64,000 nt of DNA from Raillietiella orientalis (taxonomy: Eukaryota), in NCBI GenBank assembly GCA_036172245.1, contig JAYWIR010000003.1, positions 6,014,001 to 6,078,000 of the forward strand. Reading direction: 5' to 3'. Under the pieces are notes generated by a model that saw only the letters and a list, made by a program, of their open reading frames with translations, did not search any database and was not told the DNA's origin. Below, one piece after another: positions 1 through 56,658 of the stretch. A program made the position numbers and the translations under genes. The first letter of the stretch is position 1, and every line of letters starts with the position of its first letter.

Positions 1-121
1 AATGACGGTTGTTTAATGTCAATCTTTCGAGAGAAAAAAAAAAAAAGAGAGAGAGAAGAGGAGGAAACCATGGCTGTAGAACTTAAAGCATCACCCAGAA
101 AGCGCGCAGAGGATTTTGGTC

Positions 122-930
122 TCAAAGTTGACGGAATTTCCAGATGAGCATTTCAATGCCATTTCTTCTCGTTCCCCAAACAGAACGAAAAAACAGCCAA
201 GCGAAGGCACTTCTGCAATTGAACTTCTTAGGCATAGGTTCTAACGCATTCACAGAGACTTCCAGCCATGATAAATAGCCATGATTCCAGAATGCTCTTT
301 CATAGGAATAGTTGATCCAACATTTCGACTCGTCCGTATTGAGGGACCTCTGGGAAAAGGGAATTGGCCATTTTTTGGCCATTTTTTTTCCAATGGTGAC
401 AAAGATTTGTATAGGCAATTATTTATAAGTGTGCCGCCCGACGCTGTACAATGGACTATGAAATTGAACTGAGGTGTCTCTTCTCCGTAACAGATGATGA
501 TGAAATTTTCGTGAAATCAGTACCATCTCTGTGCCATCGGAGTTACCGTGATCGACTGACACCATCGATTTGAAGAGTCTGCTCGTGGAGATGGATCAGA
601 ACGTCAGTTTCAGATGTCTGCGTACAAGCTCCAACCGTCTCCCTGCTGCGTCGCAGGGAATGATGAGCTTTGTGAAGTTTCAAGGCTACACGTCTCCATT
701 GGTGCTCGTCTTTGTGCCGGTGGCACGAAGGCTCATCTCCACGCCGTTCTGTAACCATGGGAGATGCTGCCGAAACACCATCGCTGCACTGCAGAGTTTA
801 CTCGAGCACTTGACGCCAAATTGCGACCACTCTCTTGCACGCCCTTTGCCTCGGTTCGATCTGAGCCCACGTCAAGCTCAGCTTCTGAAGCCGGGAGCTG
901 TCACTCCGGAAGAGTGGCAAAGAGTTCACG
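122..930 (-). mobile_element. Decayed RLE-type non-LTR retrotransposon (Utopia-like) fragment, N-terminal part of the RT (domains 0-3)
   Basis: Minus-strand remnants occur in the expected order: TAPG (~900), QWRRVALKLHK (cf. NWRPISL..YK, ORF 543-758) and FWNHGYL...AFAWLFFRSVWGT (cf. C.EH.F.L...VAWLDL.NAFGS, ORF 122-418). Frameshifted. Confidence 0.7.
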
Positions 931-1209
931 TTCTGAACGCACTCGGGTGTCTTCTTCGTTCTGCCAGCACGCAATGGCGTGACAAGGAATACGGACGCAT
1001 AGCGACAAGAGCGTGGATATCAATTGCATCCTGAGTTAATTAACTCGGTCCTGACCACCTTGGAGACCTGACGTGATGAGGAAGAATGCTCGATTCGGTC
1101 AGACGCGCGCCGGGTTGGCCGCAATCGATAACTTTTCGTCCCTTGAATTACAGTTTTCGTCTTGAAGTTTTCATTTTTCGTGGGTGATGAGCTTCGGTGC
1201 AGATGTAGA

Positions 1210-3200
1210 ATGTAATTATAACTGTAGTAATTGAAAGATACGGAAAATTCTCATCCTTGGATGACGGGCTGTTAAATGAAATGGGAAGGATAATTGATAA
1301 TAAAGCCCTATAATCACTTTAGTGCCCTGGATGACATCCAACTCTTGTTGGATTGGGATAACAAGCACTGCTCCATATTCGCTGTACGTTGCCGTGGATA
1401 CTGGTTTCTATTATCCCGATATCTTGTCAGGTTGTTCCCATCATCTCATTTGGGTGTTGTGCGCTTTTCTTGAGAGAATCCTCCTTTGAAACTTGGACTC
1501 CCACGAGCAGTCGAGTCGAGTTTCCTGGGATGCCACGGATAAAGGCTCCAACATGGTAGCTCCTGGCCGACACAGTGCGACTGGGGCTGCGGCTTTTCGA
1601 TTAATTTAATGAAAATACCCCTTGCAGCCCTGCCATCTCGGAACATCTGCTAATGGGCAGCAATCAAACGGAGCAGAGGTCGGCAAATTAACCGAAGTAG
1701 TTTCCGGTTCCAGCAATTTGGTTTCCGTAGGTAGCTCGGTCGCGTTGCATCCTGCATTGATTCGGGATGCTCTTTTGCCTGTTTCTAATAGAAGGACAAC
1801 TGGGTGCAGCCAACTGCTTTTGGAGAATTCTGTAGAACCAATGGATTCCTAAGAAGCGTTAGGGCTCGCATTCTCGATTACGCATCTGTATGTGGAATTC
1901 CATTACGTCGTATATGTGTAGAGTCAAACAGCTTACAACGGTACATAGAGGAACTATGTACTGTTCCCTGATCACACACGAACTCTATCACGTATGCAGG
2001 ATGGACTCTGCTCTGGCTGCTCCGGGGTCTCGGAGGAAGAGCGGCAGCGTTTGCGTAGGCAGATCTTTATAATCGGGCGATATATAAAACAGACTCTGTT
2101 TTTGCAGAATATTTATATCAAATTAAGCAGTCCATGCTGCTAAGCACCAGCTGTTGAATCGATCGACGTGATCGACGTAAAGTGCAGATAGCCTTCATGA
2201 GTTCCATTGCTGAAGTGGCTATTCTGAACGAGAATCTCCTACGCAGAAAACGAACCACATTTGGTTCTCCTCTCCCCATGCCAACAGAAACTTGTGGTGC
2301 AGGTGTGTAAGATCACTGCATCCCCTCTGCACAGCTTCTTCTGATCCTCGAGACGAGCTTTCCTGGCTCTTCACGGTTCCAGTTGCATGTTCTTGAGCTT
2401 TGCAGGTCAAGCAACGAACTGAGGGGTGGGACATATGCCAAAGGACGAACGCTCACTATTGTCACTACAGTTGCCATTGCCACTGCTTTTTCTTCTTCCC
2501 TCTGAGTGGAACTCTGCAGATCTCAGTTGCATCTTCTCCAAGTTCAGCATTGCTTGTGCCGATCACCCGTTCTCGGTGGCGATGGAGAGCGTCATTCATC
2601 CCAACTAAGACAAATGGGTTCGACAGAGCAGCGCAGACAGCAGCAGTGGTAAAAACGGCCACCAAGCAAACTTTGCCAAGAAATGGGGTGTTTTGCCGTT
2701 TTACTTAAAACGCAGCCCTGAGACCCGGGGGGGGGGGGGGGAAGAAGGGTTTCTGAAGCGCGACATGGGATGCGCACAGGTTTTCCTCCATCAAGCGTTC
2801 ACTAACTGGTTTGATGAATCTCTGCTTCTTTTCTTCCTTTTCGAACGCAACAAGCTCTTGCGTGCTCTGCGCGCAATGCGAGGAACACGTGACAGGGTGG
2901 TGCGTCACCATCGTGGATGGCTTCGTGAGAGCTCTTTGAGCACCGGAAAGACAAACCGCCACGGCACCATCTTTGCTTTCGTCATGTCGTTCAGCGTTGG
3001 ATTCCGCCCCGAGCTACTTCTGTCCTCCTTGCCTTCGGGAATTCCAGCGTGCAAAGGGAAGCGGAAATTTTCGCCACATCTTGTTGATTTTCTTCCTCAC
3101 CTGCCTGAACGACTGCCACCTTGCGCGACGGTGTCCCCTCCGTCTTGCGAGAAACTGTCCCAGCCTGTCCTGCAGCCTGGAAGACCAATAAGACGCTGAA
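1210..3200 (-). mobile_element. Decayed Utopia-like fragment: RT domain 7/thumb through RLE endonuclease and 3' UTR
   Basis: ELGEDATEICRVPLRG (cf. L..GE.Y.YLGVP.G, ORF 2465-2665), LPTSAPFD (cf. DVTVPFEN, ~1665-1685) and a frameshifted VGA(L).WHPGN (cf. VGALGSWDP.N, ~1520-1552). Confidence 0.6.
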
Positions 3201-3799
3201 TGGGAGTCAGGCAGAAACGAGGAACGCCACTGCTACTACCAAGGCTGCGTTTCCAGCTCTGCTGTTGTGGTCCGAAGCTCAACTGCAAGCCTCGAACGGG
3301 GCAGAGCTTTCATGAGCGGAGTTCCCATTTGCCATGACCACGCAGTGCACCCGTAATGATGCCTTTTTAGAAGAGGGGAATCTCAAAACTGGGCAGGGAG
3401 GCGCGGCTGTCACACTACGCTTTGGCAACCACAATTCTGTTATGACGACATCGTTGCTCTCCTGTTGCAATCGGGGAGTTTTTCCAAAGCGACAGGGTCT
3501 CGCAGCTTCCCAGAGTCTGAGATAAGACCTTAAGCTCCATCCAAATTGCATCTTCTCTACAAAGTTTCAAGCAAGAGCCGGTTGAGCAAAATGCGACCTG
3601 AGCGTCCAGCACGTGAGCGGGAGCTACGAGTGGGAGACGACTGACAAGTCTACAGAGTCATTCCATACGTCAGCCGGAGAGGGAGGCACAGCTACCAGAT
3701 CTCGCATTTCAGATAAAGGGAAAGATGCTATCGAACGGGACCGTTGAGAACGGTGGTGGAGTTTGGTGGTGGTACATTCTCCGGGGAGTTTCAGCTCAC

Positions 3800-5400
3800 C
3801 TTCACGAAGAAGAGTGCATGCTAAGAGATTCTATGAAGAATGGAGTCCAAGCGTAACCTTGAAATGGACGTCACCACGGAGATCGTTTGCTTGTCCACCT
3901 CACCATGCGACATCGGGTTGTGCGCTTGCAGCAAGAGCTTGCCATGTAGAGGATCAAATAAAACTGAACAAAAGTTTACAACCGCGAGCTGCGGTGGCTG
4001 GAGAAAGATGCAGATCAGCTGCCTCACGACCTTCGGGTTGATCGGAAATGGACGGAAAATTCACATGGCTTTTCGCACAACGTTCCATGGAAACGGAAGC
4101 ACATCGCGAACTTGTGATGGAAGTGCACCTCGATGGGGAGCATATGTACTCCCATTCCTTCCCCATATTGCATCCTCCCTTTTCAGCATCTGCAGCTTCC
4201 AGCATTTACCCACGGCAATACATCACAAATGGGATGAATCCATGTTGGAAATTTCTCCTCGGGATAAATACACTTTGATCCCTTATTCCAGAGGCAGGGC
4301 TTGGTTCTGGATCCGCAAGCAAGGTGCAAGGAAAAGAGAAGGCTTGGGCATGTTGCATGCACTGTGGTACTTATTAGATTCATCGAAATTATTTGGTACA
4401 ACAACAGAGAAACACGTGAAGAACAAGATGTGGTTCAAGGGGATGCAATCCACATGGTACCATGAAAACTCGAGGAAGACAAATGAAGTATGGATGAAAT
4501 TTCCATGACGGAAACATCCTTGCAGATGCTTAGATGATACTCCAGGATCTTCTATTGGTATCCGTCAGAGAAACTGTAGCATCTGATTGGACGCAGAAAG
4601 ATTGATTCCTTTACGATCAAGAAAAGTACTAATGTGTATGTGTGTGCGCGTTTTTTTCCTTTTTTTTTTTTCCTGGTCGTTAAGCTGATCGTCGAATCCA
4701 AGCAAATTCTCTGGTGGCAATCCGCACAGGAATTCGTATCCCTTCTTCCTGAAAGACAAAGCTTCGGGGAATCGCGAGAAGTCGTCTTATGGAGATCTTT
4801 TTCGGATCATCCCCTAGGGAAAAATTCTCCACTCATTACGATGAGAAGCGTCGCGCTGGAAATGCGAACACATCTCTTTTCTCAGCAAAGGGGGGAAAAA
4901 AGGTCCTTTTCCATTTCTCCGAGTCTGGTGGCCCTGTCTCAATCCGGAGAAGATTTGGAGAAGCTGGTGGAAGGTACGTCCACCAGCTTCTCCTGCAGCT
5001 CAGCTGCCTCACCACCCTTGAGTTGATCGGAAGTGGACGGACGACCTTCACTGCGCACTCCCACCAGCCTCTTGGCACCATGCGTTTCCGTGGTAGCAGC
5101 AGGTTCCTATCTGGCCCAACTGAGGCGATGCGCTCCTTCTGGGGAGATCCATCTTTCGTTTTCCGTCTAGGAATCGCATTTCAGGGTACCGTGGAAACAT
5201 GGTTCTCCATGCACGGCTGACACATAGTAGAGAGTAGTGCAGCTGTGCTCCCTGAGGGGCGCATCAGCTTCCCATGGCCTCCAGATTCGAGATCGCCAGC
5301 TCCAGTTTCCTGTCGAGGTCAGAGCTGCGAGCCGGTCAGAACAGCAGGTTCCCACGGCGAGAATTTTGATGCTCCACGAGCTTCCAGGAAAGGTTCCCAC
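3800..5400 (+). mobile_element. Decayed Utopia-like RT core (domains 2-7)
   Basis: ORF 3840-4508 has ISPRDKYTLIPYSRG (cf. ISP.QKGF.P..G) and HALWYLLDSSKLFGT (cf. AWLDLSNAFGS). ORF 4634-5026 has SLVALSQSGEDLEKLV (cf. DDLVL.A.S.E.LQ.LL). SRFLSGPT (cf. YRYLG.P.G) lies at ~5100. Confidence 0.7.
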
Positions 5401-5649
5401 AGAAATAGAATGCTGAGGAACTGATGAAATTAGACCATCAAAGGTATCCTGTGTTCCTATTGCTGGTTAGTAAAGCGAATGCATCGTACGTCGATTCCCT
5501 GATCCTCTTCTATGCCACCTCCCACCCTACCCCCAAAAACAAAAAATCGGGTTTTCCGTGTCCCGAGGAATTTTGGTTTCATCGTTGGCCTCATCTGGAG
5601 AAGATTGGTTTCTTCCAGACATCATTCTCGTTTCTTTCGCGTTTTCTTT

Positions 5650-7763
5650 ACCTTCCAGTTACCGGCGGCAACCGTGCAAAGGGTCTTAAGGATACGAATC
5701 AGTTATGAATTCGGGGAGAAAACATCCGCGAGATCTCACTGAGAAATTCTGACTCGCAACTGAGGAAGTCGAGAATTTATGTACCTTTGATCCTTCTGAG
5801 AAAAAAGGAAGCTCTCTGAGGTATTGGGAACGTCCAATGGTTGCCAGTTGCCTTTCCTCTTTCTGCTCGTTCCAGAATCCCCTGCCAAGTCTTCGCCTCG
5901 ATCCCAGCCTCTGGCCTTCTTTGGGTGGAAAGAGAAAGATGGAACCAAGACCGAAATGGGTTCACTTTTACAGTACCAGGGAATCCAGGCAGCGGACGTC
6001 AGAAGCCACATCTCTTCCAAGGTCTCTACGCAGGCTGAAAGCATGCACATATTCGTTTTCCTGGAGGTGCACGGTTTCCCACCAGCAGAGGCGCCTAGGA
6101 TGCGGCGGTTTCAGGGAGCATCCTGCTGTTTCATCCCTGACTGGAACCGAGCTGCGGAGAGAACTTACTGGAACGGAGCAGTGAGATAAGTTCACGCTGA
6201 AATGGGATGCCCATGAGATGTGCACCTGAGGGGAGATGGCTCCGTGTGCGTGGCAAGGAAGTCTTCGTACTTTGCGTGCTCCTAGACGTCTTTCAGCTCC
6301 ATACCAGGAAAAGCACGAACCCAGTATCGTGTTTGACGGATACCAGAAGGCAGTTGTGATCTTCCTGTCCAAAAATTCAGAGCGAGTGGGTTCCAAGAGA
6401 CGTGAGACGGTTCGGTGCTTATTAAGAGAGATCCAAATGTCCATCTTCGTTCTTCCGTTGCTGAAAGATGATGCCGAACTCATGGGGCAAACCACGGAAT
6501 GTGAATGCTTCACGTGATCTCCAAATAACGAATCAGGGGCTTCGTTTTTGCGAAGTCAAGCACAGTCCACGCATCCAGCATCTGTGGATCCCCTTCCTGG
6601 ACCATCAACAAGTATCCACGGTTCAAGACCGGTCAACAGTTCGCTGATGCAACCTCCAACATGGTAAAAGTGGAAGGAACAGTGAACTTTCCATGAAGAG
6701 TACCTCTAAAGGCGGCCGACCGCGTAGATGGTTGGGAGAAATCTGAATCCTTTGGGCGCGGATGGTTGAAATTTGTCACTCCGCGAGCTCCGCTGCTTCT
6801 TGACGGGGATCAAGCGGGAAGGGATACGAAGTAGGGTGTGGATTGGGGCTGACATCGTATCCAACAGTCGTTCGTTCGCTTAGAACTGAACTGCCCAAGT
6901 CAGAAAAATGTCTTCGGACAGCAGCAGCCTGCTAGGGGAAAGTAAGAACGCTCGGCATGTTGCCTGCTATCAGAACACCCCACGTAAGTAGCAACAGTTG
7001 CTCCGAGCATCATTCCAGTAGAAAACAGACAGAAGCAATTTTTGATTCGTGGACCGCAAGGCATATCCTGTTGAAATATAGATGCAGAGAAGTAGCTGTT
7101 GCTCTTCCTGGAGGATCTTTTTTTTTTTTTTTTTCGGTGTTTTTCTTTGTGCTTAATGGAGTGTAGTGCGAACATAAATGGCAAGAGGGTGGTCATTCTG
7201 CCGGTTGCCATGGCTGAAACTTCCTCTCGGTAAAAATGAAAACATCTTCGATAGCTGCGGATGCACCTTCGCGCCCTCGCAACCTCAGCAGTCGATTCTC
7301 GATCGATGTTTTTTGTTCGGAAACACCCTTGTTGGCAACTACCATTTTCCGATTTCCCTCAGCATCTTTTTTTTTTTTTTTTTTCCACTTTTGACATGGA
7401 ATATCGTTAGCGCAGTCATCCGGTTGGATGCTGGTCAGTCACCTTCTGGAGATGTGACAGATAGGAAGAATCATTTTATTCTCAGTGCAGAGTGCGCAAC
7501 TCTCGACCCGCTTTTGTTTTCAGATGAGATTGCACGTTTCACGAAAGCTTTCCAGCAGTGTATCTTAGCAACGGGATTGTAAAGTGTCGTGCATCACGGC
7601 ATTTGTTTATCATCTCACAAACAGATCAAACTCCTTCATCTTCATGCTTTCTTCCAATGTTAAAATGCCCTCCCCGCATCACGAATTTCGGTACCTACAT
7701 ATTATCGTATATTAAATAAGCATTTTTGTTCAGTTCACTGTTTAATGATAACACTGCTATTAG
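5650..7763 (+). mobile_element. Decayed Utopia-like fragment: RT7, thumb, CCHC knuckle, RLE C-terminus and 3' UTR
   Basis: GSLLQYQGIQ (cf. G..Y.YLG.P), TPHVSSNSCSEH...EAIFD (cf. TLPHV..HC...HNAI.D, ORF 6957-7166) and a C-terminal LLFSDEIARFTKAFQQCILATGL* (cf. LMVSDTIRWSRDIY.EH.TG) ending at 7582. Confidence 0.6.
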
Positions 7764-8049
7764 ATCAGTTTCTAACCAGCTAATCGCTCCAAGTCACCCT
7801 CGGAGCTTTGGAGATTGCATTCCAGGATTTTCAAGCAACTTTGCTTTCTTCAAACAGCCCCCTTCTTCTTTAAGCAGGGATCAGGCACTCACTTAGCACT
7901 TAAGGACTATTAAACAGACACTGCCGAGACAGATAAAGGGAATGGTATGAGTCGTTGGAGATCCTGGGAGGATGAAACATTAGGAAGAGTGTCGATAGTA
8001 GGCTCGTGCAATGGGTGCCAACTCTCGTGACTCTCGCATTCCGAAGATC

Positions 8050-9010
8050 CCAGAACCGAAGATACCAGTCTGACGAAATTCGAATTGCAGTTTGTGATTG
8101 ATGCTGGAAATGTTGAAGGAGACGCAAAGAAGAGTGCAAGAGAAGTGTTGCACTCTCTGGAACTCTGGTGCGACCAGGACGAACGGAAACTGATAGGGAA
8201 GAATGTGGAACATCTCCACTGCCTCGGAAGAATGAAAGGTGAGCAGCCAAGAGATGCAGGAACTTCGGCGGCGACGTCAAACAGTGGATTCAAGCAGAGG
8301 AGATAAAGAGGGGAGGGAGCATTTTCACAAACCCCTAGGGGGAATTCTGATCTGCGATTCCCAGGATTAACTTTCAAGAAAGTAGCCTATTTGAGGACAT
8401 CGTCGAAGCAGCAGAGGAGCAAAGTTTGCTCAGGCGTGCACGTCGTGTGTTCAGAGAAACTTGGGGTGCTATTAGGTCCTCTATAGAGAAAGAAAACTCC
8501 AGCCTTTGATGAAATCAGATGGAGGCGGCCGGAGAGGACCACGGAATGATTGTTCAGTATAAAATGATTACGCCATGCACGACGTTCCTGTGGTAACTCT
8601 GTGTTTATAGCACCACTTTCAACGCAACCAAATATCGTGTCGCTTTTCGTGTTCATGGCATGCCCAACGTGCATCCATCCATTCCTTAAAAGGGAAAACA
8701 ACTGAAACACGACTGAAGTGTGGGCTCCTTCGTTTTAGGAGCACAAGGCCCACTCTGGAGTCTGTCTGCCCCATTACCTCGCCTTCGGCGAGTGAGGAGT
8801 AAAGCTTCTCTTAGCTTCCGGAAAGGCGTTCTTCTGTCCCGGAAGGCAAAATTTCCCCATCGATTCTCGACAGTGGAGCCTTTTTTCCCAGGAATGATCA
8901 CTGCCTTCAAAGTGATTCGTTTTCTTCCCCTGGAAGTTCACTCGATCAATCGCTATGGTAAAGAATAACCTGCGGGTAGGAAGGCTTCAGGAACATTCCT
9001 TCGTTGCCTC
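8050..9010 (+). mobile_element. Decayed Utopia-like CCHC/RLE 3' fragment
   Basis: GSFVLGAQGPLW (cf. F.VGALGSW, ORF 8720-8968), preceded by a degenerate CxxC..ETL-like segment at ~8425-8470. Confidence 0.5.
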
Positions 9011-9149
9011 ATTGAACCATCTGATATTCCAGTTCTCCCATCTGTGCAATCCTTCCGGTCAGAGCCGTTCCGAAAGGATTGCTCACCCCTTCGCTCTAGC
9101 CACTCTCCTTCCTCACTACTAATTTTCATTTTTATTTATTTATTTGTTT

Positions 9150-9750
9150 TTGCGAGGCTGGCTGCGCTCTTTTCTACGGTTACGGAATACCTTCAATCCG
9201 AGCGAATTCTTCACACAGGCGCGCCTAGCCTTTCCTGTGGAAGGGTAACACAACTGTCTACTTCGATTACCTCCAAGAAGAGGGCGGCACAGAACAAAAT
9301 CGCTCCCCAACAGCTCCCGGACCGCGGAAACCATAATCTTTGATCGAAGACATTCCGGTGCTTTTCCATGGAATCGAAAATGACCACTCCCGTGACTGAC
9401 AATGAAATTCCTCGGCAGTTGGCCACAGAACGACCCTGTCTTTCTCAGTAGAGACCGTTTCTCACCGGTCCTCCAGGATGACGGTGTTTTTCGAGGTCAT
9501 GTCATGCTCCGTGACGTGCCACTTGCCGGGTGTCCTGCAGTAAATTACCCCCTTGCCTAGATACCCCTTCCGGTACATCCACTATGTTACGACTTATCTA
9601 ATCTTATATCAGAGCGACGGGCGATTTGTATTCAATGATTATTACATTCAATCTACCTTTCTGAGTAGTAGAGTGAAGCTCTACAGTCACCCGCTAATGA
9701 AATTATTAATGAAGAAAAAGAAAAAAAGAAAAAAAAAGGAAAGACTTAAA
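9150..9750 (+). mobile_element. Decayed Utopia-like RLE 3' fragment with 3' UTR
   Basis: ETIIFD (~9328) and LGSWPQNDPVF (9411-9443, cf. LGSWDP.N..V), followed by a stop near 9541 and an AT-rich tail ending in TTAAA. Confidence 0.55.
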
Positions 9751-10099
9751 GTTGTTTGTTACCAGTTAAGAGCTGGTTTTAATAAATTCATCCTTCCGCT
9801 TGTTGGATTTGGGGAAAAGAGTGAAACTCCACCACGAGTGAGACTCGAGCTCTTGAGCCACCCCGGGAAGGTGCGTCCAGGATGAAGTCGCTGGAAACAC
9901 TCTGTGAGAACCACGGACGAGTGGTGACTCCTCCCCGTGCACTGGGTCTAGTGTGACCGTACTTGGCTGCTCACGGATCCGACCCGAAATTGTTGAAACG
10001 CTTGTGTGGCCTCGTAGGCAAATCAGGAGTAACCATTGACTCTAACTGGAAGGAAAAGCAGGCACCGGTGAGGATTCACTAATTCAAAAGCCGGAGCAA

Positions 10100-10800
10100 G
10101 GAGCTATGGGAAGCACTGGCTCTGGAGGTTCCTTGCTTCCTTGCCATTCCACGGAAGACGCGGCAATGGATGCACCCATGGTCCAGATTCGAGACTGCAA
10201 ACAGTTCCATACGCCGCTGCTCCAATACGCCAAAAAGGGCAAAGGAGGAATCGCCCACAGGACACGAGAAATGTCGCAAAATCAGGACGACGACGCTCGA
10301 TCCGGAACCACAAGGGGAGATGGTTCGGGAATACATTCCACAGACGAACAGAAATGAAGGCACCCCCATCACAGTTTCCAACCGCTCCTGGATACGAGAG
10401 GCTGGAACAGTTTGGAGGACGATCTCCTTGTGATTTTACCACAGATCCCCTCTTCGAGTGGCTCGAGGATTGAATACTGGGTAGGCAGCATCCAAGACGA
10501 GTCCTGCACGGCGTGCGGGCACAGGGAAATCCATCTCCACGTGCCGACCTGCCCGACACTGTGCCAAGACCGGAAAGAGATCAGCAGACCTGAGACCCCT
10601 GGAGAGAATGTTCGAAGGGACCGGCGGCGTTCCCTGATACAGTCCCGTGGTGAGGACCACGATTGGTCACGAGCTCTGTGACAAGAAGAACCAAAGTCCC
10701 ACATCGGCATCAAAATTTCTGATAGGACTAACGCGAAAGGAAACCGGGATCAGGAAATGAGGCGGGGGGGGAGTTCCCTCCTGGAAGCATCATTGCTTCC
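10100..10800 (+). mobile_element. Decayed Utopia-like RT N-terminal fragment (domains 0-2)
   Basis: FPTAPGYERL (cf. NTAPGPDGL, ORF 10141-10473) followed by a degenerate VL...GNPS segment (cf. TVLIHKKGDP). Confidence 0.5.
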
Positions 10801-10939
10801 TACGGAAGGAAGATGACATTGCCCAAGCGAGCGAGGCAACCAGCAACTCCTAAGCGTGGACCCCAAAGGACAGAAAACCCTCACTGAACTGGGGGAAACC
10901 TTGGGGAGTGGAACCCCACGCTAGCAATGCAAAGCATTA

Positions 10940-12300
10940 GGTGGAAATCTCGTTCGGACTTGTCTTTCCCTGACGGTAAGGTCGAAGAAGCTGGAGTGAA
11001 CGACCCTTCAGGGATGGATGACTCGCAGGCATTGCTGTCTGCTGCCTGGGAAACCCTCCTCTTGCTACGCTCTCCGAAAGAGCCGACCAGGTAAAACAGC
11101 AACTGCAGCACACTGGACAGAATGGGGTAGGCTCAACCGGGGTTGTGGGTAGAGCTGCGGGGAGGGTGAAGGAGAACGAATGGGTGCTAAACATCAGCTG
11201 TGCGTGGACCGGAAGAGGAAGGGTACTTTTTTTAGTTTTTTGGAGCGAGCCGAGGAGAAAGTGCCTTCTCCCTTCCCTTCCCACTCTTCCCAAGCATTCC
11301 CCTAAAGGGAGGATGTACGCCAAGACTTGTGGTCCAAAATCAGTGTCGGGAAAGAGTATTCCGCCTGAATGACCTTGATTGCTCTGTCCGCTAGATTCTC
11401 GCAGAGTGGCAACGACCTCGTTCGGAATCCCTTCCCCTCCCATCTCAGCCATGTACGTCTCAGCCCCTCAGTGGACGTTCCCCATTCCGTTGCCCTTCTT
11501 GCGGAAGCGTGGCAGCCGATCTCGGCGGGATATCTTCCAAACGGACGGTCCAGAAGCCATAGACCCCCATTTCGGTTCTTCGTTTGGGAAGGTTCTTCTT
11601 CCACCTGGAGGTCCTGTTGCCTGATAAAATGGACGCGGGATCAACACTGAGAACCGGAGCAGGAGTGAGGATGCCGTGTCGGTAGGTAGGGGTAGCCACT
11701 TCCACATTCCAGACCAGCCGACGTCCCCTGAGAGAGGGCGACCATCGCCTGATCGGCATTCGAGACATCGTGCTCTTGGCTCCCAGCTGGGTAGTCGCCA
11801 CCCAACTGTCAGGGACGTGCGCACCCTCCAGCGGCAGAGCCGTAAGGAACGTCGCGCAAGGCGGAAAACGGACAGCGAGGCGTCTACGAAAGGTCCCAGC
11901 AGTGGAAGTGGCTTAAGTCTGCCGACGTCCAGTCTGCACCTACAGGCTGTCTTCCACCCGGACACTTCTCCCCGTGTCGCGGGCGCACCGCTGCGGTCTC
12001 ATGGAGCTGCCCGTGACCCCGGTCAAGCAGCGGTCAGTTCACTCCGCGCGTTCGTACCTCCAACTAACCGAAGGTGATCCGATCCTGTTCCAGGTTCTCG
12101 ACAGAGCTGCCTCGGGACGCCTCTCTCAAAGAGAAGAGGGAGAAGAGTTGCCTCGAGTGAGAAGGGTAAAGACCTTCCTCTCCCCTTCTGCACATCTAGT
12201 CTTTCGGACTGCTTCGCTTCACATCCGACAGACAGCCCGTGTAGCAAACTGCTGTTTCGGAAGAGCACGGGAGATGAATCTCCCCTCGCATTTGCGTGGA
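10940..12300 (-). mobile_element. Decayed Utopia-like RT domain 4 to thumb fragment
   Basis: A frameshifted RGN/LLPLLF (cf. QG.PLSPLLFN) at ~12125-12155, ADWT...LKP (cf. ADW.GL.F.P), AIKVIQAEYSFPTL (cf. LDAI.TF..P.L) and TKKSTLPLPVHA (cf. K..L.LP.RA). Confidence 0.55.
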
Positions 12301-12321
12301 AGTCCTCCCGTTAAGAAGGGT

Positions 12322-12473
12322 AATGGGCCGAGCCCGGAGGAACTGCAATACCGGGTCAACCCGCAACAGGGGAGAAGAAAGCTCCAAGCATCCTCTCCAC
12401 TTCCCAAAAGGTAGCTTAATGTGCTGGCCACCAGATGGGTGGCGTATCAGATGTCAAGCTGATAAGAACAGAT
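12322..12473 (-). pseudogene. U2: 5'-truncated U2 snRNA gene (approx. nt 38 to the 3' end), interrupted by a Utopia insertion
   Basis: The minus strand reads ATCTGTTCTTATCAGCTTGACATCTGATACGCCACCCATCTGGTGGCC...CTTTTGG...GGGTTGACCCGGTATTGCAGTTCCTCCGGGCTCGGCCCA. This covers U2 stem IIa (TATCAG/CTGATA), stem IIb, a degraded Sm site, stem III and stem-loop IV with the TATTGCAG loop. The 5' part (stem I and the GTAGTA branch-point recognition sequence) is missing. Confidence 0.93.
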
Positions 12474-14900
12474 TTGTTTCAGTAAGGTATTACAAAATAT
12501 ATATAAACAAATAAAGACGGGATGGCTCTGCCGTATCTCTCTTTCTTGGGCTGAGATGATGATCAAATTTCATGACTTAAAGAGAGACTCTTCCCTTCTG
12601 CTACTGCCCCTCGCTGCAGATTGCAGGCGTCATCTGGAGGATGTCCTAGACGGTGCGTCCAGTAGATGTCCAGTGAGGCCACCATTGAGTGCTTCATTTT
12701 ATCCGCATACAACTTCAGGATGACTTCACCGTTTCGAGGGTCCCACGATCCTAAGGCACCTACATTGAACTCACAGACTTGGGTCTGAAGACCTTTTCTC
12801 GTAAACAGCAAGGCAATGTCGTGGTACAGTGGTGCCTCGGTACTCGTGGGTAATTCGTCCCGGACTTCGTGACGAGTGCCGAAGCCGACGAATACCAAAC
12901 GAATTTTTTTCAGGACCCACGATTAACGCTTAAGAAATATGCACAGGAAACACACAAATAAGGAGCATTCTATGGAAGTGTTCGGCACTGTTCGCGAGCT
13001 ACCATGAAACGAAAGTGTTCACTCGTTTCATCATGGGAGTGGGGTGTCGAGTTCCGAGCATGCGCCGAGCGTCGAAGCATTTCCTTGTCGTCGAAATGCG
13101 ACGAGTACTGAGTTTGACGAGTACCGAAGCATCACTGTACATTTTTTCTATTTCCGATCCTGTGAGGCTGAATACCCTGTCCTTGTTTTCGAAAGGATAG
13201 GATACAGTCTTGTTGGACGGCACCAACCTTCATGCTTCTGCCTGTTCTCAAGGACCGCGGCACTCGCAGCTGGAAGAGGGTGGACAGCTGTTCGAGGAAG
13301 CGAGAGAAAGGTGGAAGAATCCCTCTCGGAAAAGCTGCGGTTATCCTCAGAGCCTCTCGTCCGGCGGTTGCCTTCGTGCAGGACAGAGGGGAAAAACCTG
13401 TTGCGCGTGCCTCGACCACCGTGTGAGCAAGCGGGAGCAGCCACACGGCTGCTCTTAACTCTTCCCGTTGTTCCGCTCTTGAAGGGCCGCTTCCAGAACA
13501 GGATCCTGGAATCAAACGGCTTTGTGTACGTCTCTCACGGAATGGCATACAACATGCATTGGGTATTCATGTCACGCATTCACCATGGGAACGCGCCGAC
13601 TGATTCTGCTTCCCATTCTGAAACCGCTTTGGAGCTGCCTGAAGTGCTGATGCGGTTCGAGATCCGGGATGCTATGCGAGGTAGAGACACCACCACTGAC
13701 CTGGGAAGCCGTGAGCGGTGGTCTCGTGAAAGTAGAGGACACGGGAGCTGAGATGTGTGCCATGGAAACTTTCTGTCGCAGAGTGGCGGAGTCAGAAACA
13801 CTCATGAGCACTAGTAGAAATGTTCCTAACCTTTGAAAGAGATGTGGATCGCGCGTGGTTCGAGTAACCAGACTGGGAATAATGCAGAAGCAGAAGAATT
13901 CCGTGAATGCTTGAGGTTTGCGGAAGACTTTTGAGGATCGTGAGATTGCCCCAGAGGTTGGGACCAAAACACGGTTCTTCTCGTTAGCTAATTTCGTTAC
14001 CTAAACTGGAAACGAGTCCGGTAAAGCCGCAGCGGTTGGTCATCTTTGGAGACAAAGATTGATCGGACTCGTTTTATTCACCAGACTCACTGCAACCGAA
14101 TTTCCGGAATAGGATGCTGCTGTCGATCCTACTTCCATCTTTCGTTGGCTCCTGTAAAATTGGGTGTTGGAAGCTGAGAGGTTCTGAATCCCAAGAATCT
14201 CCCCAATACCGAATCTGCAAACGGTAGCTGGCCTCATCTCGAGGCTACCATGAATAACGATTCACGGCACTCAACACAGCCCAAACCAATAAGTAAGCAG
14301 CATGCTGAGAACTCTACAGTAGCACTGAAAAAAAAAAAGGAAAAAAAAGAAGTCTCGAAGTGAGACAGCAGGATTGGGAACTTTTGCAAAACTCGGATTA
14401 TCTTCGGCATCCCACCGGAGCAGTTTGTTTGGCAGCTGATCCCAAACTTATGACAACGGTGCCATGTGCGATTTCTACGGCATTCCAAGCGGGGAAGTGA
14501 GATTGTCTCTGCTTTCCGGTGCTTCCTCCGAACAAGGGCAGAGAATTATGAGCCTCGGGACGTTCATCAAAGCTTACTGACCTTGAACTCATGATAGGTT
14601 GCTCTCGCCACAATGCCAAAGATGAAAGAAAGCATGACAAAGGAGATCAAAACAGGGGAAGCATTTTTCGTGCTCACTTTGCCATGTCCTGAGGATTTGG
14701 ATGGAATGCCTTGCATATTGGATTCCATTTGACGTAGATACGTTTTGTACACGAGCCCTCAAAAGAAGAAAACCACTTGTGCATTTTATTAATAATTTCC
14801 GAAGAGCACCTGGGGCTATAAAGTGTTGTCTTTGTTTTTGTTTAGTGAGACGCAGTTTCATTAATCCACCTTTTTCCGAGATCTCCCATTCCTTTCAATA
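12474..14900 (-). mobile_element. Utopia (U2-targeting RLE non-LTR retrotransposon), decayed RT-thumb-CCHC-RLE with 3' UTR abutting U2
   Basis: D(+1)VSYPFEN...EKMY (ORF 12999-13226) and YHDIA...VCEFNVGALGSWDPRN...SLDIYWTH (ORF 12563-12898) are characteristic RLE C-terminal motifs. VHKA (cf. IHRARLN) lies at ~13525. The 3' UTR ends in AAA and joins TCTGTTCTTATCAG. Confidence 0.88.

Positions 14901-53746: not shown

Positions 53747-56658
<2,912 letters not shown>

Follow-up and report, generated by a model that had tools for sequence, protein, structure and literature searches.

How did a partial copy of the gene for U2 small nuclear RNA (snRNA) come to lie directly behind the 3' end of a retrotransposon in the genome of Raillietiella orientalis, with the front of the gene missing? 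The question is raised by a stretch of 64,000 nucleotides (nt) of contig JAYWIR010000003.1 (assembly GCA_036172245.1, positions 6,014,001 to 6,078,000 of the forward strand), referred to below as the window and numbered from its first letter. The window contains one dead unit: behind the truncated 3' end of a Utopia-type retrotransposon with a restriction-like endonuclease (RLE) come an A-rich tail, nt 39-190 of U2 and some 110 nt of flank from a U2 gene. Units of this kind number in the dozens and lie scattered over the genome without promoter or upstream flank, and their source was probably read-through RNA from Utopia-interrupted U2 genes, retroposed off target by 3' transduction.

The unit is read on the minus strand. 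Profiles built from the copies of the same genome recovered a sole RLE end in the window (13257-12473, minus); comparison with a reference protein from locus L044 (L and C numbers denote loci and contigs of the assembly) and with hidden Markov models (HMMs) of its relatives placed the RLE end at 13257-12617 (minus), interrupted by a miniature inverted-repeat transposable element (MITE). The 5' remnant of the coding end, near which the element is truncated, lies at 13141-13257 (minus; composite HMM 13257-13121, E ~1e-7; tblastn to reference amino acids 846-870). The MITE (12824-13140) was inserted at a TA and has 24-nt terminal inverted repeats, the arms of which (12824-12847 and 13117-13140) are 92% complementary; five further copies, at 73-76%, were found among the genome loci compared. 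The C-terminal RLE coding segment (GALGSW...DIYWTH; 12617-12823, minus) is decayed and Utopia-like, being 47% identical to amino acids 868-944 of the reference (tblastn, E=1e-13; HMM, E=3e-21). It is followed by the end of the open reading frame, the 3' untranslated region (UTR) and the A-rich tail (12473-12616, minus; composite HMM), with 79% identity over 348 nt to L141, the sister of the window element in the tree (support 100/95). In a Pfam search of the six frames of window 1-13500, no family was matched at E<=5.

The U2 piece (12321-12472, minus) extends from nt 39 to about nt 190, lacks nt 1-38 and is 89% identical to the genome consensus (Rfam RF00004; E=2e-47 with a model of 21 copies). 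Rfam gives 86.8 bits for 12318-12504 (minus), but a good alignment begins only at U2 nt 39 (window 12472), after the A-rich stretch; the U2 copy that a preliminary description of the window had placed at 12.3-12.5 kb is therefore real, but represents the back part of the gene only. Beyond it, to about +257 from the junction, the flank (12215-12320, minus) is common to other dispersed copies and aligns at 75-77% with L045, L051 and L054. Within this shared flank there is a weak inverted U2 remnant (12211-12273, plus; E=0.036), reached by none of 200 shuffles in any of six scoring settings; at the equivalent place L059 has a clear inverted U2 arm (E=1e-12). No U2 5' half or promoter was found within 7 kb upstream of the unit. 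The arrangement of an insertion inside a U2 gene, with the 5' half upstream, is thus missing here and is present at L043. This lowers the case for the window unit lying in a U2 gene and not the case for its being Utopia, because missing 5' halves are also allowed for in the published account of Utopia (Kojima and Jurka, 2015; PMC4640811).

By junction and nuclease type, the window element is, as far as its sequence can tell, a Utopia. It keeps only the RLE end and no reverse transcriptase. The reference protein of L044 matches RVT_1 (E=2e-32), its best relatives among solved structures are R2 proteins (E=5e-61), and its translation shows finger and nuclease motifs, which we take to be a CCHC finger and a PD..D/ExK nuclease. 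Utopia elements are described as NeSL-clade non-LTR retrotransposons with RLE, which combine a reverse transcriptase, a zinc finger and RLE; disrupted U2 genes outnumber intact ones, and several families coexist, some of them weakly specific (PMC4640811). Our elements resemble them in domain content, in the excess of disrupted over intact U2 genes and in the coexistence of several families, some weakly specific, and the 3' end is likewise joined to U2 at nt 39, both in the window (12473/12472) and in each of the 41 loci described below. Keno, a Tx1-clade element with the same U2 site, differs in having an apurinic-type (APE) endonuclease and no RLE, whereas an RLE-type C-terminus directly precedes the tail here.

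The 210-Mb assembly was searched for further copies. Rfam gave 46 U2 matches, which is a lower bound, and none was intact; an exact pattern for the intact U2 5' end had no matches, and a split-site pattern had four, all in short fragments. Of the Rfam loci, 41, on 24 contigs, were taken with 10 kb of context, the remaining five being two more tail junctions, two 5' heads and one internal fragment. In all 41 loci U2 starts at nt 39 and in none is the upstream octamer intact, while an A-rich tail precedes U2 in 38. The junction pattern occurs at 63 sites in the genome and at none in the control; for 14 of 31 further junction sites, the examination covered about 1.5 kb of DNA on the upstream side. 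The sequence that follows the tail varies continuously in length, from 20 nt to about +417, and many pieces end inside U2. Most copies are old (U2 identity 80-98%); L040, L041 and L049 are young dispersed copies (97-98%), and L043 is a complete on-target event with an 11-nt duplication. Off-target insertion of Utopia is common: five of eight copies that were selected by protein and have a Utopia-type tail have no U2 behind it.

What the dispersed copies have in common lies on one side only. The preliminary description had proposed to check whether copies share downstream flank, and they do: homology reaches +180 or beyond in 29 of 39 dispersed loci and +250 or beyond in 14 of 39, as measured with permissive alignments that may overstate the ends, while later insertions can shorten the flanks. 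Several element subfamilies carry the same long flank. On the upstream side, 25 loci compared have only Utopia sequence and repeats in common, at varying places. Matches to the U2 promoter region (817 bp) are confined to C389, one cluster on C30, C482 and C450, i.e., two clusters and two tiny contigs. A promoter-proximal 22-mer has four occurrences (one in the control), and each of the four lies before a U2 5' half and then foreign sequence. All four promoter-bearing loci keep the U2 5' half, while among the 41 loci a U2 head was found only in L043, a real gene, and in the atypical L074. A dispersed promoter, which the preliminary description had also suggested looking for, was not found.

Downstream flank that is shared, together with upstream flank that is not and the lack of a promoter, supports 3' transduction of read-through RNA. 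Under this explanation, Utopia would insert at nt 38/39 of real U2 genes, and transcription would continue across the element into the remainder of U2 and on beyond its end. The reverse transcriptase of the element would sometimes copy such RNA from a point inside U2, or from up to a few hundred bases beyond, and the copy, 5'-truncated as usual, would be inserted off target. Every U2 piece would then be drawn afresh from the conserved U2 gene in a one-off event, and would neither be inherited along element lineages nor seed arrays.

The main alternative is that dispersed real U2 genes, copied as DNA together with promoter and flank, were hit on target by Utopia and lost their 5' half and promoter by deletion, either during the insertion or afterwards. 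In the published account, disrupted U2 genes are taken as genes hit in place, and in Phytophthora there is no 5' fragment upstream of Utopia (PMC4640811). The exact nt-39 junction in 41 of 41 loci is the outcome expected of on-target insertion, one flank is common to several element subfamilies, and no target-site duplication (TSD) brackets the units. However, more than 800 bp of promoter would have to be lost in every case, including the young L040, L041 and L049, whereas all four promoter-bearing loci keep the 5' half; neither dispersed promoter remnants nor shared upstream flank are seen, and the many pieces that stop inside U2 also speak against it. We regard hits in place as unlikely, though they deserve to be taken seriously. 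A different origin of the one-sided pattern would be the capture of random DNA fragments of an interrupted U2 array, by break repair or by another transposon, with no RNA step. The lack of TSDs agrees with capture, and this genome does take up pieces of DNA, an example being the mitochondrial-type insert at window 9538-9665. Capture nevertheless predicts fragments of promoter plus head about as often as fragments of tail, U2 and flank; none of the former are dispersed, and none of 30 U2 heads share upstream flank, which makes this origin improbable.

The heads are a subject of their own. Seven loci (L107, L132, L138, L167, L169, L173 and L183) are promoterless chimeras of a U2 head and Utopia, and four of six tested units of this kind are enclosed between exact repeats of 11-16 nt, whereas the null did not exceed 9. 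L132 combines a head with a duplication and lacks the U2 3' half; its head and element were therefore inserted together. Thus, RNA-type chimeric products exist in the genome. In addition, there are 600 dispersed U2 5' fragments, ending near nt 32-38 (L080-L109 were sampled), of which 3 of 30 have a TSD of >=8 nt, compared with 2 of 870 in the null. It is conceivable, at somewhat less than even chances, that transcription of Utopia RNAs starts at the U2 promoter and continues through the rest of U2 and the 3' flank behind it, and that the element retroposed these chimeric RNAs off target.

The 5' fragments also bear on the idea that Utopia was inserted into tailless U2 retrocopies (nt 1 to n) already scattered in the genome. 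Such retrocopies are abundant, some have TSDs, heads are enriched at loci with short U2 pieces, and a few unsplit U2 pieces exist. On the other hand, mature snRNA has no downstream flank, so retrocopies of it can give neither the window unit nor the 29 flank-bearing loci; unsplit pieces number only 2-4 against about 60 split ones, and L132 could not be produced in this way. As the general source of the units, pre-existing retrocopies are very improbable.

Several observations weigh against 3' transduction, in addition to the reservations on flank ends given above. That the element carries its downstream target along by 3' read-through had been proposed in the preliminary description and is supported by the one-sided pattern across the genome, but it is unproven: none of 22 flank-bearing units, the window unit included, has a TSD above the null, in a test where unit boundaries are imprecise. 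The flank that the two promoter-cluster copies have in common is only about 43 nt long, and short shared flanks may therefore reflect plain functional conservation. The true source flank is unseen, because the assembly has no intact U2 gene by Rfam or by the exact pattern. Old promoters could have decayed, most copies being old. Away from the promoter, no locus has head, element, U2 and flank together. Finally, heads occur in 4 of 13 short-U2 loci and in 1 of 40 long-U2 loci (Fisher p=0.010), an enrichment that a single process does not predict, and the short-U2 class may represent insertions into older U2 retrocopies.

Was the U2 piece inherited with the element, as self-templating would require? 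The preliminary description held that the element, by taking its target along, seeds new landing sites and builds arrays. None of 55 junction loci has a second Utopia tail on the same strand in tandem, and the relatedness of the elements is not mirrored in their U2 mutations (Mantel r=0.02, p=0.35). These mutations are star-like, related element pairs sharing 1.0 derived U2 states versus 0.8; two pairs, one involving the window copy, share 4-5. Neither repeated units on the same strand nor inheritance of U2 with the element, the features of a self-templating tandem array, were therefore observed.

Within the window, the same description had read 1090-12473 as a decayed tandem array of RLE end, 3' UTR and U2 remnant. 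Four U2-like motifs, at 7764-7785 (plus), 9012-9044 (plus), 9753-9777 (plus) and 1110-1205 (minus), are indeed present, but as U2 remnants they are no better than chance. At none of these sites was a U2 match found with Rfam to E=10, with nhmmer and a profile of 29 genome U2 copies to E=50, with a composite profile of element and U2, or with the 21-copy U2 model with filters off, which gave 18 matches to E=10 elsewhere. Of 6396 overlapping tiles, 98, 30 and 46 match at least as well as the motifs at 7764, 9753 and 9012, respectively. In an anchored test only the sequence beyond each motif was scored; simulated copies at 50% divergence were caught in 0.97 of cases, and the p-values are uncorrected. 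For U2 only, p was 0.073 at 7764, 0.95 at 9012, 0.50 at 9753 and 0.069 at 1205; for U2 plus flank, it was 0.027, 0.99, 0.62 and 0.041, respectively. Thus, the 9012 motif is a chance match (p=0.95-0.99), and so is that at 9753 (p=0.5-0.8), which sits inside a separate dispersed repeat with seven matches at 75-80% over 9700-9830. The sites at 7764 (p=0.03-0.10) and about 1200 (p=0.04-0.09) are borderline and would not survive correction, and no RLE was found upstream of either; under one of six scoring settings they were reached by 2 of 200 and 5 of 200 shuffles, respectively, and very old relics are possible there.

The other RLE termini on which the array had been based could not be recovered in 1-13500: tblastn, a protein HMM of 55 fragments and an RLE-only HMM all give a single RLE end, and a weak RLE-HMM match at 9696-9926 (5.0 bits) falls under the maximum of the reversed-sequence control (8.2). 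Self-comparison of the window shows no repeated unit. The window has no array, so that the proposals of a saturated U2 cluster and of a head-to-tail array both fall away here. In favor of an array are the existence of the motifs, the two borderline sites and a tandem Utopia insertion known in Nasonia (PMC4640811); against it stand the single RLE end, the lack of self-similarity among units, the two plainly null sites, the 0 of 55 loci arranged head to tail and the U2 mutations that are not inherited with the elements. By the yardstick of the preliminary description itself, U2 scores set against shuffled or random positions, the array is largely refuted. We consider an array at 1090-12473 extremely improbable; its proposal was mostly pattern-seeing around one ordinary Utopia-U2 junction, and the genome-wide pattern matters more.

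Other sequences in and around the units are also of note. An inverted U2 piece is present in the flank of 9 of 41 loci, weakly in the window locus. In L046, L047, L048, L051, L052, L055, L059 and L062 it comprises nt 39 to about 128 and lies downstream of the forward copy, and in several loci with inverted U2 an inverted Utopia-like tail comes after. In L052 the inverted piece closes a long hairpin (z=-13). In L062, the inverted arm has both the tail and a junction mutation in common with its locus, which points to conversion between the arms. The same MITE family sits at the same TA, in the same orientation, in the RLE end of the window unit (12824-13140) and of L174 (813-1120), and the U2 pieces of the two have three derived states in common. 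A simple duplication was rejected, as the Utopia copies belong to different clades and their element parts are 57-62% alike, compared with 78% for the MITE; a hot spot or gene conversion would account for the coincidence.

L044 and its neighbors (C30, 2.69-2.74 Mb) form a rearranged cluster with two copies of promoter plus U2 head in opposite orientation, several Utopia copies, one U2 3' half and a 4.9-kb tandem duplication at the contig end. In L074 (C44), the RLE coding region of a U2-headed Utopia contains a piece of U2 (39-176) that no tail precedes, possibly as a result of a template switch. L134 and L140 (C81 and C83) are Utopia-related and have long open frames; the tails are fused to antisense eukaryotic 28S rDNA at a single site, presumably about 15 bp from the R2 site, and they are possibly a distinct rDNA-targeting family. 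In the window itself, 9700-9830 and 10010-10575 are pieces of dispersed repeats, 65-86% identical to many genome sites. A piece of about 125 bp at 9538-9665 has 39 genome matches at 87-97%; the copy in L126 (26% GC) adjoins a match to bacterial-type large-subunit rRNA, and the piece would fit the end of a mitochondrial small-subunit rRNA inserted in nuclear DNA. The window also contains a 48-bp direct repeat (4009-4056 and 4994-5041, 87%) and a 68-bp palindrome (55849-55916).

The general precedent for a 3' transduction is LINE-1, whose read-through RNA brings downstream flank along to a new, 5'-truncated insertion. LINE-1 has an APE nuclease, is primed at poly(A) and leaves TSDs; in contrast, the nuclease here is of the RLE type, neither terminal poly(A) nor TSD is seen, and what is carried along is the gene that the element itself targets. 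Among RLE elements, the nearest precedent is a fish R2 lineage with a 28S-derived 3' UTR, i.e., with target-gene sequence at the 3' end (Kojima et al., 2016; PMC5035012). In that lineage, which resides in rDNA, the target-derived sequence is a fixed and diverged component of the element and is explained by a shifted top-strand cut (PMC5035012), whereas the U2 piece is not inherited along element lineages and occurs off target. Tailless U2 retropseudogenes and the U2-headed SINEU and Tx1 elements of vertebrates, driven by L1 and Tx1, contain the 5' part of U2 (PMC5322556, PMC4494074). They resemble the dispersed 5' fragments and the U2 heads on retroelements found here, and the 600 fragments are of the tailless type known from mammals (PMC5322556); the window unit differs in having the U2 3' part and genomic flank. 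Compared with Utopia as published, the junction copies are on at least 24 contigs without promoter and with shared flank of variable length, and the 11-nt duplication of L043 is unlike arthropod Utopia, which is reported to make no TSD (PMC4640811). Transduction, read-through and promoter all go unmentioned in the main text of that paper. The literature searched, from which most subscription papers and Repbase notes are missing, contained no report of U2 transduction by Utopia.

R2 is the model RLE element, and whether its native templates include downstream target sequence is stated to be unknown (PMC11194090). If 3' transduction is the origin of the dispersed units, they show a native RLE element copying read-through RNA that holds its own target, and they map the ends of that RNA. 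A caution also follows, namely that disrupted U2 genes counted from 3' junctions can overcount real gene hits. If, moreover, Utopia RNAs do start at the U2 promoter, many of the 600 U2 5' fragments may be products of this machinery as well, and the scattered copies would be fossils that record the native 5' and 3' termini of the RNA of an RLE retrotransposon.

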